Shown here: positions 36,001 to 48,000 of the stretch, one piece after another
Numbering within the stretch: the stretch's first letter is position 1
Layout: every line of letters begins with the position of its first letter
Position numbers: made by a program
Source: Granulicella sp.
GTDB lineage: Bacteria; Acidobacteriota; Terriglobia; Terriglobales; Acidobacteriaceae
Assembly (NCBI GenBank): GCA_027339965.1
Contig: DAHWNL010000078.1
Coordinates: 96,001 to 160,000 of the forward strand
Length of the DNA stretch: 64,000 nucleotides
Direction: 5' to 3'

Positions 36001-39000
36001 CTGGTAGATTCCGTTTCGTTGTCCACAGTGATCGACTCCGGCAGGCCGCGTTGCAGCAGCGCCTTATCCAACGCCGTTGCGACCTCCTCCCCGCTCAGTG
36101 TGTTGTCTGTCAGCAGCGTCACACACTCCCGCGTGTACTGGTCCACTACCGTCCGCACACGGATCCAACGCCCGTCCGGCAACCACTGCGCCACGAAGTC
36201 CATCGACCGCTTCTGGTCTGGCCGCAACGCCGATCCCTGCGCCACACGATGCCGCTGCGCGCGCTCCTTGCGCTTCTTCGTCCTCACGATCGGGCCCTCC
36301 TCGACGTACAGTCGGTAGATGCGCTTGGCGTTGACCTTCCAGCCTTCGCGCTTCAACAGCACGGTCAGCCGCCGGTAGCCGTAACGCACGCGGTTGCCGG
36401 CCAGCTCCCTCAGACGGATACGCAAGGCCTCCTGCCGGTCGCGGTGATGCTCGTAGCGCAGCGTCATCCGCTCGACTGAAATCAGCTGCGACACGCGCCT
36501 CTGGCTCATCCGGTGGACCTGCTGTGCCCACTCGGCCGGCTCGCGCCGCGCACGAGGCCTTACAGTTTTTTGCGACGATCTCCTGCGACACATGACGGTC
36601 CGGGTTCGGGTCCGCTACCAAACGCTTCGACTTCGCGTTCTCTTCACGCAACTGGAGCAGCTCCTGAAGCTCGTTCAGCCCCAACCCGGAAGACTTCTTC
36701 TTCCGCAAATAAAACGTCTGCTGGCTGATGCCGTGCTTCCGGCAAGCCTCGACCACCGTGTCGCCAGACGTGGTCTCCCGCAGCACCCGCAGAATCTCTT
36801 CCTCGCTGTGTCCACCCTTACCCGTACAGGTTCTCCTCTCTTGCTTCTCAGAGAACCACAACAGGCCAAATCCTCAACGTCAACTTGGCCTAGTTTTTGG
36901 GTTTTGGGTCAGATCGGACGTTTCCAATGGTGTCCGGACAATCTCCGGGCCAGGAGATCCGGCAAATCACCATGCATTCTAAGGTCTATCTAAATCTCCA
37001 TCTTTCGATGGAAGTAGGACGATAAACGACTGCCGTATAATTCAGTCTCTCCCAGAATGGAGCGGGCCTTGTGCACGCAAACCTCCAGGATGGCTTCGCC
37101 GATTCCCCGGATGCTTTAAAGGACGGGCAGCGGCAACGAACGATCATCCGGGTTCTCGGTATCGAAGTGGGTGGGGATGAGTTCGTCACCATGGCAGGGC
37201 CATGCTCGGTTGAAACCGAGTCCCGGCTCATGGCAACCGCTCATCATGTTCGCCGCTGCGGCGCGCGCATCCTTCGTGGCGGCGCGTTCAAGCCGCGCAG
37301 CTCCCCCTATTCCTTTCAAGGTCATGGTCTTCAGGCGCTCAGGACGCTCGCCCGCGCCCGAGCGGAGTTTGGACTGGCCATCGTCACCGAAGTCATGTCG
37401 GAAAGCGATGTCCCTTTGGTGGCTGAGTACGCTGACATACTGCAGATTGGCTCGCGCAGCATGGAAAATCTTCTCCTGCTCAAGGCTGCAGCGCAATCCG
37501 GGCGACCGATCCTTCTGAAGCGAGGCATGATGGCTACGGTTGCCGAGCTACTCTACGCGGCGCAGTTGATCCTGGAAGAGGGCAACCCCAACGTCATTCT
37601 CTGTGAACGAGGCATCCGCACCTTTGAAACATCGATGCGCAACACCTTCGATGCCGCGGCCATCGCATTGCTCAAGCAGATCTCGCACCTGCCCGTGATC
37701 GCCGACCCAAGCCACGCGGCCGGGCATCACGATCTGGTTCCCGCTTTGGCCCGCATTGCCGCGGCCGCGGGAGCGGACGGCCTGCTGGTTGAAGTGCACC
37801 CCGAGCCCGAGCAGGCGTGGAGCGATGGGGAACAATCCTTGGATTTTGCTGAATTCGAAGCCATGATGATTTCGCTGGACCCTCTTCTGGCGCTGCGCTC
37901 GACGGTTCCGGGCGCGCCCGTGGATGCAGGGTTCGTGGAGGTTGGTGGGTGAGGGGTTCTTTCTTCTTGTTTTTAGCCGCTCTCAGTGCTTTTGCGCCTT
38001 CGCCCTCACGTGCCCTGCCGCCCCGCATAGTCCACCAGACGGAAGCCGATTTTCTTGTCACCGCTGCTCCCGTCTACGTCCCCCTGGCAGAGATGCACGG
38101 GCGGGAGCGATTCCCCCGCGGAGCACGGTTGCTGCTGGTCCACAACGGCAAGGCCGCGCCCCTCGTGACCGGCTTCGCAGATACCGCGGACCCCGATCTC
38201 TCCTTCGGTGGCCAGAGGGTGCTCTTTGCCGGCAAGCGCACCACCGCCGATCCTTGGCAGATCTGGGAGCTCAACCTCAAGAACGGCTCGTTGCGGAACG
38301 TCATCAGCACCGGAGTCGATGCCGAGCGACCGCTGTATCTGCCGGGCGGACGTATAGTCTGGGCGCAACGCACGGCCTCTGGATTCCGGATCGAGTCGGC
38401 TCCGGACGGCCATCCTCCCAAGGTACCGTTCCTGAACCCGACCGCCGGTCCCGGAGTGCTGCCCCTCACCTACATCCAGACCAACGCCTTTCCCACCACC
38501 ATCCTGGCCGACGGCCGCATTCTCTTCGAGTCCGGCTATCCGCTCGGAGAAGGCGCAGCCACTGACTTATTTGCGGTCTACGCTGATGGCTCGGGCGTGG
38601 AGGAACTCCGTCCCTATCAAGGCCGCTCCCGCTGGGGTGGCTCGCAACTGGCCTCCGGTGACGTGGTGTTCTCCCATGGAAGGTCGCTGGCGAGGCTCAC
38701 CTCCGCGCTGCTGCAGGAGGAGCCCATTGCCGCCCCCCAGGCCGCCTACGCCGGCACAATCGAGGAGACGCCTTCCAGCGAATGGTTGCTGAGTGCGCGC
38801 GCGACCGGCCAGACGCACTATGCAATTGATCTGTGGAAGCCCGGAACCGCTGCACTCCAGACCATCCTTTCAGAACGCGGCGAGGATCTTGTCCAGCCTG
38901 TCCTGCTGGCGCCTCGTACCCCGCCCAGACGATTCCCTTCAGACCTCCACCCTTGGAACTACGCCAATCTTCTGGCCCTCGACTCGCGCCTGTCCATGGA

Positions 39001-45000: not shown

Positions 45001-48000
45001 CTCCGGCTGTGCCTCCTGCTCCACCGGCTATTTCCCACGCAACGGACTCCTGGTGCTCCTGTGGCGCTCATCCACCCGGCCCGGAACCGCTTTGGACTTC
45101 CAGGCCCTACGCCAATGTTCCACCGGACATGAAGCCCTACGCCAGGTTCGCCAAACCGTACTATCACTACTACACCCAGCCGACCATCTGGAACGGGCCG
45201 GGGCGCGATACACCCGCTCCCGCAAATCTCACCGAGGTGCGCATAGGTTTCGTCGGCCCCATCTCCCCGACCGATCCTGATTACACCATGGGTATGCGCA
45301 TGTTGCATGGAGTGCAGTTGGCCGTGGAAGAGGCAAACGCCCGTGGCAGCTACGGAGGCAAACCTTTCCGCCTGATGCTGCACGACGACTACAACAACTG
45401 GCAGGCAGCGGCGGTCGCCGGCCAGGCTCGTCCTACCAATCCTGCCATCTGGGGCGCTGGCTTGGATCCAGCCGTCAAGTGCATCTACGACGACAAGGAC
45501 TGGGCCATCTTCGGCTCCATCAACTCAGAGACCACCCACGAGATGTTGCGCCTCTCCCTCAAAGCCGAAATCCCCATCGTCAACTCGGCTTCCACAGACC
45601 CCACCATCCCGGAGACCTCCGTCCCCTGGTACTTCACTGATCTCCAGGATGACCGCGTCCAGGACTACACGCTGGCGCGCCGCATCTACACCGAACTGGG
45701 CCTCCAGCGGGTGGCTATCCTGCGCGTCAACAACCGCTATGGCCGCATGGGCGTCTTCAAATTTCGCGATGTCTCGCGCCGACTCGGCCATCCCGTAGTC
45801 ATCGAACAGACATTCGCGGCTGGAACCACGGACTTCACGCAGGAACTGAGAAGCATCCAGGACTCGCGCGCCGACGCCATTCTGCTTTGGAGCGATGAAG
45901 CCCCCGCGGCAATGATCCTGCGGCAGATGCGCGCCATGGGGATGAAGCAGCGCGTCTTCGGCTCATATCGCACGCTGGGCCCCACCTTGCTGGCTCAGGC
46001 AGGTCCGGCGGCAGAGGGGTTTGAAGCTGCGTTTCCCTATGATCCCAACCGCAACAACCCGCGGTGGCTCGCCTTCAATCGCCGCTTCGAAGCCCGCTTC
46101 CACGAACCGCCCGATTCGCTTGACTCCCTGGCCTACGATGCCATGAACATCCTGCTCGACGCCATCTGCAGGGCGGGCCTGAATCGTGTGCGCATTCAGG
46201 ACGCGCTAGACAACGTGCGGCAGTACGACGGAGTGACGGGGCACATGGTCTTCGATCCTAACCAGAAGAACGTAGCTCCCATGTACCTGGGCACGGTGCA
46301 CCATGGCGCCATCACCTACCGGCTCGCCCCACTTTCGGAGCTACCCCTTGCCGGGCAGTCCACAGGCGCCCAGGCTCAGGCCAGCCAGAAGCCTGCTCTC
46401 CATCCCGCGGCAGTGCCCATTCCCTATGCACGCGTCGGTGAGGATGGCATCCATTATTTCGGGCCGACACAGCCCAGCATACCGCTCGGCCCGGTGCGCG
46501 CCATACTCATCGGGCCCCAGGCTCAAAAACTGGCACAGTCGCCCGCGATCAAGGCGGAGTTGGCTGCTGCCGCGCAAAAGGGGCGCGCCTGGATGCTGCT
46601 GCCTGTGGACAGCGACCAGCAGTGGGGCGCTGCATCCACCCAGTTGGTTCGTGACTTGTGGAACGAACACCCTCTGGCAATCATTGCTTTCGGCAGCAAA
46701 GCCGGTCATCTGTCGGAACAGTTGGCGCTGAAGACCTTTGTCCCGGTTGTGGCCGTCTCCGACGACCGGACTCTGACCTCCGCGGCCGTGCCATGGATCT
46801 TCCGCCTCCCGACGGGAACCTCCGCGGTGGCCGCGCTGCATCTCCTCGCAGACGCTGAGGCTCGCGGAGGGCCCAATCCCGAACGGGTCAGGAATGTGCT
46901 GGCCTCGGGAGATCTGATCTCAGGATTCGCATTTCTTCCCAGCGGAGATCTGCGCAAGCCATAAGTCCCCGCTTCGCCTACGTAGCAAAAGAACCACTGG
47001 CTGGAGCCAGTCCGGAGAAAGTGGCCGCATAGGGAAGACAACCTCCTTCCTCCCGGGGACGGTCTCCAGCGGTCGGGTACCTCTGTACCACTGGTCGTGC
47101 TGGCAGATTGGCGTTTGCAGCGCCGGCAAACGCGTGAGCGCTCAACGAAGCCCAGGGTCAGAGCGCGGCGAGTTCGGCCATGGTCGTGTCGTGGCGTAGC
47201 TTCCACTGGTCGGGGAGCCACAGGTCGAGGTCGGCGTCGGGCGTGACCGGCAGGTTGGTAAGCAGTTGGGTGAAGTAGATCTGCGGGTCGACCGCGTGGC
47301 GGCGGCAGGTCGAGGTCAGGCTGGAATAAGATGGCTGCCGTACGTCCGCCGCGCGGGTTGCCGACGAAGAGGCTGTTCTTCCGGTTTAGAACCACGCGCT
47401 TCATCTCGCACTCGCTGACACGATTGTCCAGCGGTATGGCGGGGTCGAAGAGGAAAACAGTCATCTCGGGCCATTGCCGGAGGGCGCAGCCGACAGCGTC
47501 GGCCATGGGATGCTTGGGCAGCAGGTACTCTTTCCAGCCAAGCAGCTTCTCGCGCGGCGCCGAGTGCTCCCCGCGCAGCGCCAGTCTGGCCGCAGGCTCC
47601 AGATCTTTTGCCTTGCGTTCGACCGCGTAGAGCGCGCGCACGTACTCGACCGCGGCAGCGGCGATCTCGGGAGCGGACTTTTCGGCTTCGACGAATCTTC
47701 TTTTCAGATGCGCCCAGCAGCCGGCGTGCGTGATGCCGTTGCGGGCGACAACTCCGTTGTAGCCGTCGTAACCATCGGAGAGCGCCAACTCGGCAGTCCC
47801 ATCATCCCCACCCTTGCTCTCCCACGGCGACCGGCATCGCTTCCAGCACCCGAATCACCGCGCAAAGTTGATCGCCGTCAAATCCAGGCCCCACCAGAAG
47901 GCTGCGCCCACCGCAAAGGGGAACTTCGATGGTAGACCTGTTCGAGCCCAACGAACTGCCCTCGGTCGGCTCCGCTTGAAGAGCCGGTGACTGGCGACTG

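Follow-up and report, generated by a model that had tools for sequence, protein, structure and literature searches.

A conserved haem-protein operon related to hydrazine synthase in the acidobacterium Granulicella sp.

A wider family of proteins resembling hydrazine synthase (HZS) but acting on other substrates was proposed already in 2023 (PMC10732223). Hagglund et al. (Genome Biol Evol, December 2025; PMC12758564) have since described clusters of alpha, FG-GAP and fused beta-gamma genes, divided into clades I-IV, with Granulicella sp. L46 and Occallatibacter (Terracidiphilus) savannae among the representatives. According to these authors key HZS residues are not conserved, the homologues have the Trp of CCP/MauG proteins in place of gamma-His144, and family members occur in strict anaerobes, among which Syntrophobacter and Anaerohalosphaera are named. 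The locus reported here had been taken in a first-pass annotation for an unstudied branch of the HZS family, a claim superseded by these descriptions, and judging from the text and Table S5 of that study it would belong to clade II. The main text of PMC12758564 makes no mention of DAHP synthase, RidA, Reg_prop or amidase partners.

We analysed a stretch of 64,000 nucleotides of contig C70 of a Granulicella sp. genome (the window). Seven open reading frames (ORFs) on the + strand at 37071-46964 bear out the one-strand cluster annotated there and form one operon, with junctions ranging from 4-base overlaps to a 12-base gap (-4 to +12) and insertion-sequence (IS) genes on both sides. The features are, in window coordinates:

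35646..36861, - strand: IS3-type transposase genes (HTH_Tnp_1, rve; Pfam), directly upstream of the cluster
37071..37952, + strand: type I-beta 3-deoxy-7-phosphoheptulonate (DAHP) synthase, 293 aa (Pfam DAHP_synth_1, E 2.5e-71)
37949..39367, + strand: HZS-alpha-like protein, 472 aa (Pfam HZS_alpha, E 4.2e-15)
39364..41130, + strand: FG-GAP/ASPIC (CRTAC1-like) exported propeller protein, 588 aa (Pfam FG-GAP_3, E 1.6e-41; UnbV_ASPIC, E 5.2e-23)
41127..43178, + strand: fused HZS-beta/gamma-like protein, 683 aa (Pfam YVTN propeller and CCP_MauG)
43186..44283, + strand: exported Reg_prop beta-propeller protein, 365 aa (Pfam Reg_prop, E 1.9e-11)
44296..44796, + strand: RidA/YjgF-family protein, 166 aa (Pfam Ribonuc_L-PSP, E 5.4e-18)
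44802..46964, + strand: exported LivJ-type binding protein, 720 aa as ORF (Pfam Peripla_BP_6, E 4.6e-48)
47340..47788, - strand: IS66-family transposase fragment (Pfam DDE_Tnp_IS66, E 2.2e-35; profile positions 131-283 of 284 only), directly downstream of the cluster

The stop of the DAHP synthase gene overlaps the alpha-like start by 4 bases. Direct reading of N-terminal sequences identified signal-peptide-like stretches in the alpha-like, ASPIC, beta-gamma-like and Reg_prop proteins and, behind an N-terminal extension, in the binding protein; DAHP synthase, RidA and a cytoplasmic amidase that is a constant partner in Acidobacteriaceae clusters have none. The host, as previously noted, is no anammox bacterium; it is most closely related to Terracidiphilus and other Acidobacteriaceae MAGs. 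It carries two haem-copper oxidase genes and, judged by gene content, can respire oxygen.

The core of the operon was proposed to encode relatives of all three HZS subunits, and sequence and fold matches to 5C2V establish true homologues of HZS alpha and of a fused beta-gamma, the matches to chains A, B and C lying far above those to generic propellers or CCPs. The alpha-like protein comprises a signal peptide, a TolB-like propeller and a haem domain with a single CVGCH (aa 425-429, nt 39221-39235). Its reported match to 5c2v_A (E 6.4e-8) was recovered by sequence search, a profile of the family matched the same chain at E 5.3e-51 against 7.7e-14 for TolB, and the top PDB folds for the AlphaFold model (pLDDT 87.3) were 5c2v_A/D (E 1e-22, TMq 0.71-0.73). 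C425, G427, C428 and H429 are invariant across 47 diverse alpha-like sequences, in which no His, Met, Lys, Tyr or Cys apart from CxGCH reaches 90 % conservation as a candidate sixth ligand. As the His ligand is normal and no sixth ligand is conserved, the alpha-like haem probably has an open site.

One operon with homologues of every HZS subunit, a gamma-Cys165 equivalent and a bis-His-type second haem might be read as an acidobacterial hydrazine synthase that is functional, or as a cryptic step of the anammox type. We regard this as highly improbable, the idea being largely refuted by the residues themselves. The earlier caveats on the alpha-like protein, its short length (472 aa), single haem motif and missing Tyr, all hold: HZS-alpha Ser590-Tyr591 fall in a two-residue gap, alpha-Cys303 aligns with Gln and the alpha-II haem domain is absent, while gamma-Asp168 is not kept in the partner subunit. 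Against the NCBIfam equivalogs the alpha-like protein scores 40 where the cut-off is 800 and the beta-gamma-like protein 149.5 where it is 1250, in both cases far too little. The operon lacks the Tyr591/zinc site of the hydrazine-forming haem and hence almost certainly does not produce hydrazine in the manner of HZS, and for clades I-III Hagglund et al. likewise conclude against a functional hydrazine synthase (PMC12758564). In some relatives (G403, G621, G675, G558, G457, G480) the alpha-like gene is apparently disrupted or in pieces, and the HZS-like system is therefore dispensable.

The beta-gamma-like protein consists of a 7-bladed YVTN propeller (about aa 50-400), a 46-aa insertion and a gamma-like domain with CANCH (473-477), W515, C526 (nt 42702-42704), CNFCH (597-601), PYLHDG (639-644) and H662. 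The lineage-specific insertion carries CPACH (aa 427-431, nt 42405-42419), bringing the CxxCH motifs to three (427, 473, 597) rather than the two first annotated; it is common to only 3 of 75 other close relatives, and the third motif was gained in the lineage of this genome. Long forms in other Acidobacteriota have eight additional haem motifs. Sequence searches gave values close to the earlier ones (5c2v_B 8.4e-33, 5c2v_C 1.3e-15), with 1l0q_A (1.2e-39) scoring above 5c2v_B. The caveat that the propeller similarity is generic does not survive comparison by fold, in which HZS-beta (5c2v_B) is the top PDB match of the model (pLDDT 78.8; E 1.2e-30, TM 0.89 on target) and 1l0q falls behind it (E 1.1e-22, TM 0.66). 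The gamma domain alone matches 5c2v_C at 7.2e-17, the di-haem enzyme 6e1c at 1.2e-8 and the CCP 1iqc at 4.9e-5. C473, C476, H477, W515, G527, R529, C597, H642 and H662 are invariant in 93 beta-gamma-like sequences, and C600 and H601 are each kept in 92. C526, which aligns with chain residue C126 (HZS gamma-Cys165), is kept in 76/76 close and 15/17 distant sequences, and the HZS-gamma residue aligned with H662 is the His of 'HGRT'. The Asp168 position is Thr530/Glu531 in close relatives and, in most distant relatives, Phe/Leu then Ala/Ser; since Asp168 is not kept, the chemistry at the first gamma-like haem may differ from that of HZS.

The beta-gamma-like protein might instead act like MauG, MbnH or CCP, with H2O2 (or O2 and electrons) producing a high-valent di-haem state that oxidises a partner protein (alpha-like, ASPIC or Reg_prop) or a small aromatic compound; partner oxidation could for example build a protein-derived cofactor, with DAHP synthase supplying an aromatic precursor. 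The CCP_MauG match, a PY(L/F)HDG motif common to the CCPs 1iqc and 3o5c and di-haem 6e1c, the invariance of Trp515 between the two haem motifs (93 sequences), a genuine DAHP synthase that three clades have linked to the core and a host able to respire oxygen are consistent with this, as is the CCP/MauG Trp of the homologues at the gamma-His144 position (PMC12758564). However, the gamma-like domain is nearer HZS-gamma (7.2e-17) than CCP/MauG-type chains (1.2e-8 or weaker), and the gaps of -4 to +12 bases leave no room for a small precursor-peptide gene. The position that we take to hold the CCP Met or MauG Tyr ligand is unconserved in the family (Tyr, Phe, His or Asn), while H662 is invariant, as for a bis-His haem. 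Relatives are moreover found in strict anaerobes (Syntrophobacter and Anaerohalosphaera; PMC12758564), in which peroxide chemistry would be improbable, and we consider MauG-like action unlikely overall.

The second copy noted on contig C81 was confirmed by DNA comparison, C81:1002-10907 aligning with C70:132992-142967 at 81.1 % identity over 7838 bases and 79.7 % over 1968 bases. The shared DNA corresponds exactly to the seven genes, beginning at window 36992 and stopping at 46967; all seven proteins are 78-88 % identical and dN/dS is 0.10-0.19 in every gene, and both copies are under purifying selection. The C81 copy has a closer relative than the window copy, and the two differ in their gene neighbours. 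Two quinol:cytochrome-type modules flank the window copy, surroundings that are accidental given the IS genes that bound it.

The partner genes are truly linked to the HZS-like core, recurring in all three samples of loci. All seven genes are kept in order at 58 of 80 Acidobacteriaceae loci, and 15 of the remaining 22 are shorter than 19 kb, on contigs that may be cut. Among 20 loci chosen across the phylum by an HZS_alpha match, 19 have beta-gamma, ASPIC, Reg_prop and binding protein genes, 12 RidA and 7 DAHP synthase. A distant clade with alpha-like proteins of 22-27 % identity is represented by 34 metagenome loci, each 11 kb or longer, which have beta-gamma (34), ASPIC (33), Reg_prop (31), binding protein (28), RidA (23) and DAHP synthase (18). 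ASPIC adjoins the alpha-like gene in 19/20 phylum-sample and 33/34 long metagenome loci, and Reg_prop comes after the beta-gamma-like gene in 19/20 and 31/34. A two-component system lies directly before the module in two of four low-GC loci scanned. Within the host's own family the alpha-like gene is patchier than the roughly 25 % of Acidobacteriaceae genomes first estimated, being present in 43 of 300 species-representative genomes (E<=1e-20).

Could the haem proteins be an electron conduit only, for instance in extracellular or periplasmic metal or humic redox, without catalysis at the haems and with the propellers and binding proteins as a surface binding or sensing apparatus? The genome is rich in multihaem cytochromes (ORFs with 11, 10, 10, 8 and 5 CxxCH motifs), and the flanking quinol:cytochrome-type modules, the eight extra haem motifs of the long beta-gamma-like forms and the two-component system immediately before the module in the low-GC loci all point that way. 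The modules, however, are accidental neighbours that the C81 copy does not share, and both the absence of a conserved sixth ligand in the alpha-like family and the HZS-type Cys at the first gamma-like haem fit a catalytic rather than a relay haem. A conduit role is accordingly improbable.

The DAHP synthase passes the NCBIfam cut-offs of NF006421 (388.9 bits, cut-off 335) and TIGR01361 (352.1 bits, cut-off 267.75), has no regulatory domain and shares 54 % identity with another DAHP synthase, encoded on C54. The best solved relative of the RidA-type protein is the RidA-family PA5083 (E 3.7e-10), and RidA identity remains 55-65 % in distant clusters whose alpha-like protein is only 22-27 % identical. 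The closest solved relatives of the binding protein, whose first ~80 residues are unconserved and which has an extra C-terminal region, are the branched-chain/aromatic amino-acid binding proteins 4gnr, 3hut and 3td9 (E 1e-21 to 3e-20). Two LivJ-type binding proteins are among the constant partners without a transporter; ORF and Pfam analysis found no ABC permease or ATPase gene within the cluster.

Given the observed homology, residue pattern and conserved gene set, the explanation that we favour, at about an even chance of being correct, is a periplasmic haem-protein complex on the HZS plan, a two-site redox enzyme for a small nitrogenous substrate that does not form hydrazine. The alpha-like subunit (propeller and one c-type haem) and the beta-gamma-like subunit (propeller and CCP/MauG-like di-haem domain) would associate, as suggested by homology to the HZS heterotrimer and by gene linkage. 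Electrons would enter or leave via the His/His gamma-like haem (CNFCH 597-601, invariant H662), in this lineage perhaps also using the extra haem on the 46-residue insertion, and would pass Trp515 to the first gamma-like haem (CANCH 473-477), which keeps C526, in HZS the third covalent haem link. A small molecule would be converted there and its product passed to the alpha-like haem. We infer from these features the complex, the route of the electrons, the reaction in two steps and the class of substrate. The ASPIC and Reg_prop propellers may be additional periplasmic parts, and the unregulated DAHP synthase a supporting or protective cytoplasmic enzyme. As the partners include LivJ-type binding proteins, a RidA-type imine deaminase and an amidase, the substrate is most likely a small nitrogenous, amino-acid-like compound. 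Against this model, it does not explain the role of DAHP synthase; RidA, amidase and DAHP synthase are cytoplasmic and the haem proteins periplasmic, and a direct metabolic link therefore needs transport steps for which the cluster has no genes. The family is found in strict anaerobes as described (PMC12758564) and in aerobes, and so points to no one electron acceptor.

The operon shares with clade II of Hagglund et al. (PMC12758564) the order alpha, FG-GAP/CRTAC1, fused beta-gamma, an alpha-like protein of ~470 aa lacking both the alpha-II site and the final ~100 residues, the Ser590-Tyr591 gap, the missing Cys303, Trp in place of gamma-His144 and a host in the Acidobacteriaceae. It differs in the third CxxCH on the 46-residue insertion, and the gamma-Cys165 equivalent, stated there for clade I only, is present here in 76/76 close relatives. 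New here is that the partners ASPIC, Reg_prop, binding proteins, RidA and DAHP synthase recur as a full set in distant clades. New too are the bounding of the window copy by IS genes, the C81 copy having a closer relative than this one, purifying selection on both copies and the gain of a third CxxCH in this lineage. With Kuenenia stuttgartiensis HZS (5C2V) the operon has in common the alpha propeller and haem domain up to the alpha-I CxxCH, the 7-bladed beta propeller and di-haem gamma folds and, among residues of the two gamma haems, the extra Cys of the first and the HGRT-type His of the second; with Scalindua HZS it shares the beta-gamma fusion. Unlike anammox HZS, it lacks the Tyr591 axial ligand, zinc site (Cys303), alpha-II haem domain and Asp168, its order is reversed (alpha first) with an FG-GAP gene between the subunit genes, and its host is not an anammox bacterium. 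Di-haem CCP/MauG/MbnH proteins share two CxxCH in a ~280-residue domain, PY(F/L)HDG and the inter-haem Trp, whereas the gamma-like domain is joined to a propeller, possesses an additional conserved Cys close to its first haem and a likely distal His rather than Met or Tyr at the second, and is nearer HZS-gamma in sequence. The dguABC-type arrangement of Pseudomonas, which we take to comprise an amino-acid dehydrogenase, the RidA protein PA5083 and a binding protein, likewise combines RidA (nearest PA5083) with an amino-acid-type binding protein in one operon; no flavin dehydrogenase is present in our cluster, where, purely by analogy, the periplasmic haem proteins would replace the oxidising enzyme.

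ORF calling identified seven open reading frames on the + strand between positions 37071 and 46964 of the window, which Pfam and NCBIfam models annotate as follows:

37071..37952, + strand, bona fide type I-beta DAHP synthase, scoring above the curated NCBIfam cut-offs of NF006421 and TIGR01361
37949..39367, + strand, alpha-like gene with an HZS_alpha domain (Pfam), product of 472 aa
39364..41130, + strand, FG-GAP/ASPIC protein (Pfam)
41127..43178, + strand, beta-gamma-like gene, 683 aa, YVTN propeller fused to a CCP/MauG-like haem domain (Pfam)
43186..44283, + strand, Reg_prop propeller (Pfam)
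44296..44796, + strand, RidA-family protein (Pfam)
44802..46964, + strand, Peripla_BP_6 binding protein (Pfam)

The first three junctions are 4-base start/stop overlaps and the remaining gaps measure 7, 12 and 5 bases, and since such tight packing is typical of operons we treat the seven genes as one operon. Read by eye, the N-termini of the alpha-like, ASPIC, beta-gamma-like and Reg_prop proteins resemble signal peptides, the binding protein appears to carry such a stretch behind an N-terminal extension, and the DAHP synthase and RidA protein seem to have none. A scan of window positions 36400-47400 returned no promoter-like sites (mean of 2.8 in shuffled sequences) and 12 terminator-like sites (7.7 in shuffles, sd 2.8), nothing of which was usable, and the RNA runs X1-X3 of the linked study contained next to no sampled words of the stretch.

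The alpha-like protein is related to the alpha subunit of anammox hydrazine synthase (HZS). Searched alone against the PDB its sequence has a single significant match, HZS-alpha 5c2v_A (E 6.4e-8, runner-up 0.21), in agreement with the first-pass annotation, and a profile of 47 diverse relatives extends the match to chain residues 24-577 at E 5.3e-51, with TolB next at 7.7e-14. The AlphaFold model (pLDDT 87.3, pTM 0.86) finds 5c2v_A/D as its closest folds (E 1e-22, TMq 0.71-0.73), followed by TolB at 4e-10 and TMq 0.47. The protein thus has the alpha propeller and the middle domain with the alpha-I CxxCH of HZS, its CVGCH aligning with the CSGCH of HZS-alpha in the PDB sequence search. Ser590-Tyr591 of HZS (chain 563-564) fall exactly in a two-residue gap of the profile alignment, and no Tyr lies within four residues after H429, so that the axial ligand alpha-Tyr591 has no counterpart. 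The position of alpha-Cys303 (chain C276) is Gln in the window protein and not Cys in the consensus, and the alpha-His587/alpha-Cys303 zinc site is missing. Also absent is the C-terminal domain that carries the bis-His haem alpha-II, the 472-aa protein having only one CxxCH, followed by about 40 residues; its shortness, lone haem motif and missing Tyr had all been pointed out in the first-pass annotation. Invariance across the 47 aligned sequences is limited to the CxGCH and a small number of Gly, Arg, Ser and Trp residues, and no other His, Met, Lys, Tyr or Cys is conserved in 90% or more of them; the alpha-like haem would therefore have no conserved sixth ligand from its own chain. A complex prediction pairing the alpha-like protein (30-460) with the ASPIC protein (22-588), both supplied as alignments, scored 0.28 against a mark of 0.32, which speaks neither for nor against their association.

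By sequence the beta-gamma-like protein matches 5c2v_B at 8.4e-33 and 5c2v_C at 1.3e-15. Its model (pLDDT 78.8, pTM 0.83) has the seven-bladed beta propeller of HZS, and among PDB folds it is closest to 5c2v_B, with E 1.2e-30, rmsd 2.6 A and TM 0.89 on the target. The S-layer propeller 1l0q ranks lower (1.1e-22, TM 0.66), which answers an earlier concern that the propeller similarity might be merely generic. Residue conservation was assessed in 93 beta-gamma-like sequences from fetched loci, in which both gamma-type CxxCH motifs are retained and Trp515, Arg529, His642 and His662 are invariant. Cys526, present in 76/76 close and 15/17 distant relatives, aligns with chain C126 of 5c2v_C, which is gamma-Cys165 because the numbering offset is 39, as set by the CxxCH at chain 63-67 (Cys102, Cys105, His106). 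In HZS gamma-Cys165 forms a third covalent link to the haem, and Cys526 is its putative equivalent. His662 aligns with the His of the 'HGRT' motif shared with HZS-gamma and is likely the distal ligand of a bis-His haem. Other features of the HZS site are not retained: gamma-Asp168 corresponds to Thr530, with Glu531 adjacent, and gamma-His144 aligns with Asn, the invariant Trp515 lying just downstream. Taken as a whole, these alignments show two open-looking haems and a relay haem arranged as in HZS, but not the special chemistry of the hydrazine-forming site. True hydrazine synthesis would be in keeping with the overall homology, set against the loss of these residues and against scores far under the NCBIfam equivalog cut-offs (40 bits against 800 for hydrazine_alpha, 149.5 against 1250 for hydrazine_BC), and we find it barely credible.

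The haem domain also bears on two further alternatives. Peroxide-driven oxidation of the MauG/CCP kind would draw on the two CxxCH motifs and PY(F/M)HDG that the protein combines in one domain, as those enzymes do. The distal ligand of their second haem, Met in CCP and Tyr in MauG, has a position that we take to be 14 residues after the His of PYxHDG; here this is position 656, which is occupied by His in the window protein and, across the 93 relatives, by Tyr or Phe in most cases and by His or Asn in some, so that it is not conserved and neither ligand is found in the window protein. Searched alone, the gamma-like domain matches HZS-gamma at 7.2e-17, against 1.2e-8 for the di-haem enzyme 6e1c and 4.9e-5 and weaker for CCPs, and we regard the peroxide-driven reading as unlikely. 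A third CxxCH (CPACH, 427-431) lies on a 46-residue insertion between propeller and haem domain; it occurs in the window copy and in the second copy of the operon on contig C81 of the same genome and, among the other 75 close relatives, only in L004, L008 and L022, 72 of the 76 close relatives having two haem motifs. The role of a pure electron conduit we think distinctly improbable for these proteins. Long beta-gamma-like forms were observed in other Acidobacteriota (loci L094, L095, L098, L100, L101, L102 and L087; L089). They carry 10 CxxCH, of which 8 are N-terminal, and occur with alpha-like ORFs that measure about 660-700 aa; 6 motifs plus a C-terminal extension are seen in one form, and all of these loci have the same ASPIC, Reg_prop and binding-protein partners.

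The partners of the two HZS-like genes are conserved far beyond this core. All seven genes occur in window order in 58/80 Acidobacteriaceae loci, and 15 of the remaining 22 are shorter than 19 kb, on contigs that may be cut; five full-length loci lack a DAHP synthase match and three an ASPIC match, although ORF calls in the fetched loci relied on simple rules and tblastn matches, so that single absences may be misses. Upstream lie a cytoplasmic amidase (66/80; also present at the C81 copy, cut by the contig end) and a 1210-aa TPR/FG-GAP/ASPIC protein (62/80). Among 20 phylum-wide loci chosen by an HZS_alpha match, the beta-gamma-like, ASPIC, Reg_prop and binding-protein genes are found in 19, RidA in 12 and DAHP synthase in 7. 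A distant low-GC clade contributed 34 metagenome loci of 11 kb or longer, many of them on contigs that end early; their genes usually run ASPIC, alpha, beta-gamma, Reg_prop, RidA, binding protein, DAHP synthase and binding protein, with beta-gamma in 34, ASPIC in 33, Reg_prop in 31, binding protein in 28, RidA in 23 and DAHP synthase in 18; all these partner counts were taken over related genomes and are non-independent. The RidA of these loci is 55-65% and the DAHP synthase 52-58% identical to the window protein, the alpha-like protein only 22-27%. No ABC permease or ATPase gene lies beside the binding protein within the window cluster or among the flanking ORFs of four low-GC loci scanned, and the scan of these four showed no radical SAM or AsnB-like partner. 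In two of these four, L120 (5915-7973) and L156 (5786-7951), an OmpR-type response regulator and a HAMP histidine kinase lie directly upstream of the HZS-like module, and L156 has a SusC/SusD pair beside them. The nearest solved relatives of the window binding protein are the amino-acid binders 4gnr, 3hut and 3td9, and that of the RidA protein is PA5083. We also considered the RidA protein as a chorismatase, since FkbO/Hyg5 models match it weakly (32.7 bits against a cut-off of 325; L120 homologue, E 7e-5), and rejected this because 38/38 solved relatives (E<=1e-3) are of RidA/YjgF type and none is a chorismatase.

Homology between the window and C81 copies starts 79 bases before the first gene and stops 3 bases after the last. 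The dN/dS between them is 0.10-0.19 across all seven genes, and both copies are under purifying selection. Upstream the window copy is bordered by IS3-type genes and downstream by an IS66 fragment, and the C81 alpha-like protein is 87% and 83% identical to proteins of other genomes against 78% to that of the window; the window copy is accordingly assigned as a mobile or xenologous one. A composite transposon was rejected because the IS3-type and IS66 genes at the two flanks are not of one family. A HipA-like kinase gene (48287-49303, - strand; HipA_2, HipA_C) separates the IS66 fragment from a downstream cytochrome module. The alpha-like gene is patchily distributed in the family, occurring in 43/300 other species genomes, 26/142 genera and 1/3 other genomes of the same genus. 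In G403, G621, G675, G558, G457 and G480, genomes of this family, it is interrupted by in-frame TAG stops or falls into two adjacent matches, which suggests that the system may be decaying in some lineages. A search with the alpha-like protein (E<=1e-3) gave 2519 representatives at the 50% identity level, species genomes encode at least 579 relatives (579 of 598 candidate stretches checked), and the related-locus search was run with a 13-sequence alignment. Of 14 control genomes, that of Bacteroides thetaiotaomicron has a match to the HZS_alpha Pfam domain that exceeds the cut-off; fitness data exist for this much-studied gut bacterium, which could give a handle on this domain.

Further haem and electron-transfer genes were seen in the same genome. 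A Rieske/cytochrome b cluster with unusual additions (24127-31584, + strand) encodes a cupredoxin-like protein, a GltD-like NAD(P)H oxidoreductase with 4Fe-4S domains, a Rieske protein, a split cytochrome b, a 685-aa cytochrome c with 8 CxxCH and a Big_1 and cytochrome c protein, and may resemble the NAD(P)-linked Rieske/cytochrome b complexes of anammox bacteria. Genes at 49881-54181 (+ strand) for a tetrahaem cytochrome c, an NrfC-like 4Fe-4S protein, an NrfD-like membrane protein and a 583-aa protein without a Pfam match look like a quinol:cytochrome electron-transfer module. Many multihaem ORFs occur across contigs C21, C80, C44, C81 and C19, including one with 11 CxxCH (C21:11925-13412), a near-identical pair of 312-aa ORFs (C80:13822-14757 and C44:28162-29097) that each have 10 CxxCH, and one with 5 CxxCH (C81:25187-27502) adjoining an ASPIC paralogue (C81:27819-29426); such richness is unusual for a presumed plain aerobic heterotroph.

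Building on the homology, the residue pattern, the conserved operon and the export signals as read from the N-termini, we propose that the alpha-like and beta-gamma-like proteins would form an HZS-like periplasmic complex. Electrons would pass from the bis-His haem, together with the extra haem here, through Trp515 to the Cys526-bearing haem, where a small molecule would be converted before being handed to the open alpha-like haem. The substrate may be a small nitrogenous, amino-acid-like compound, a guess made because the constant partners are amino-acid-type binding proteins, a PA5083-like RidA and, in Acidobacteriaceae, an amidase. The DAHP synthase might be a source of aromatic precursors or stand in for a housekeeping enzyme that is inhibited. 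To this reading as a whole, an HZS-like periplasmic two-site haem complex acting on a nitrogenous amino-acid-like substrate, we give about an even chance. A bolder version would make the module a widespread non-anammox enzyme forming an N-N or N-O bond by steps of NO/nitrite reduction and condensation: a hydroxylamine-level intermediate would arise by reduction of NO or nitrite at the Cys-linked gamma-like haem and be condensed at the open alpha-like haem with the amino group of an amino-acid-like compound brought by the orphan LivJ-type binding proteins. This would yield a hydrazino or N-hydroxy compound, with the cytoplasmic RidA, amidase and unregulated DAHP synthase processing the reactive product or protecting the cell. 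This version strikes us as highly unlikely.

The genes carry the HZS_alpha name and could inflate counts of anammox markers in soil and peat metagenomes; by the residue tests they should not be taken for such markers. The family retains the unusual HZS design of two catalytic-looking haems and a relay haem, and its reaction, once found, would reveal new periplasmic haem chemistry and what anammox HZS evolved from. The fixed partners (ASPIC, Reg_prop, two orphan binding proteins, the highly conserved RidA and the DAHP synthase) offer experimental handles for finding that reaction.

The first-pass annotation took the cluster for an unstudied branch of the family, yet the same clusters have already been described (Hagglund et al., Genome Biol Evol, December 2025, PMC12758564). 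In that paper, co-located alpha and fused beta-gamma homologues fall into clades I-IV, of which I and II have an FG-GAP/CRTAC1 gene between the two and II and III are without the alpha-II site. The homologues share the two-residue gap at Ser590/Tyr591, the missing Cys303, which is not universal even in anammox bacteria, and a Trp replacing gamma-His144, and the authors conclude that they are not hydrazine synthases (PMC12758564). Members are named in cultured Acidobacteriaceae, and Table S5 includes Granulicella sp. L46 (alpha 490 aa, beta-gamma 658 aa) and Occallatibacter/Terracidiphilus savannae (470 aa and 635 aa); a cluster look-up of 10 close alpha-like relatives gave no accession matching its members. 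A broad HZS-like family with other substrates was suggested in 2023 (PMC10732223); the accessible text of neither paper proposes a function for the homologues, and a full-text literature search, including PMC12607021, found no functional study of a non-anammox HZS homologue. The present analysis adds the conservation of the partner set, the mobile or xenologous nature of the window copy, the third CxxCH and the patchy distribution. DAHP synthase, RidA and amidase have no occurrence in the main text of PMC12758564, where 'propeller' (five occurrences, each taken with the words around it) refers to the subunits of HZS and to homologues of these. Gene order, protein lengths and haem count lead us to infer that the window cluster belongs to clade II. 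As described for that clade, an FG-GAP/CRTAC1 gene separates its alpha and fused beta-gamma genes, and its alpha-like protein, with 472 aa and one CxxCH, is without the alpha-II site and the last ~100 residues; the clade II beta-gamma protein is described with two haem motifs and no extra, the number seen in 72 of the 76 close relatives, and that of the window has three.
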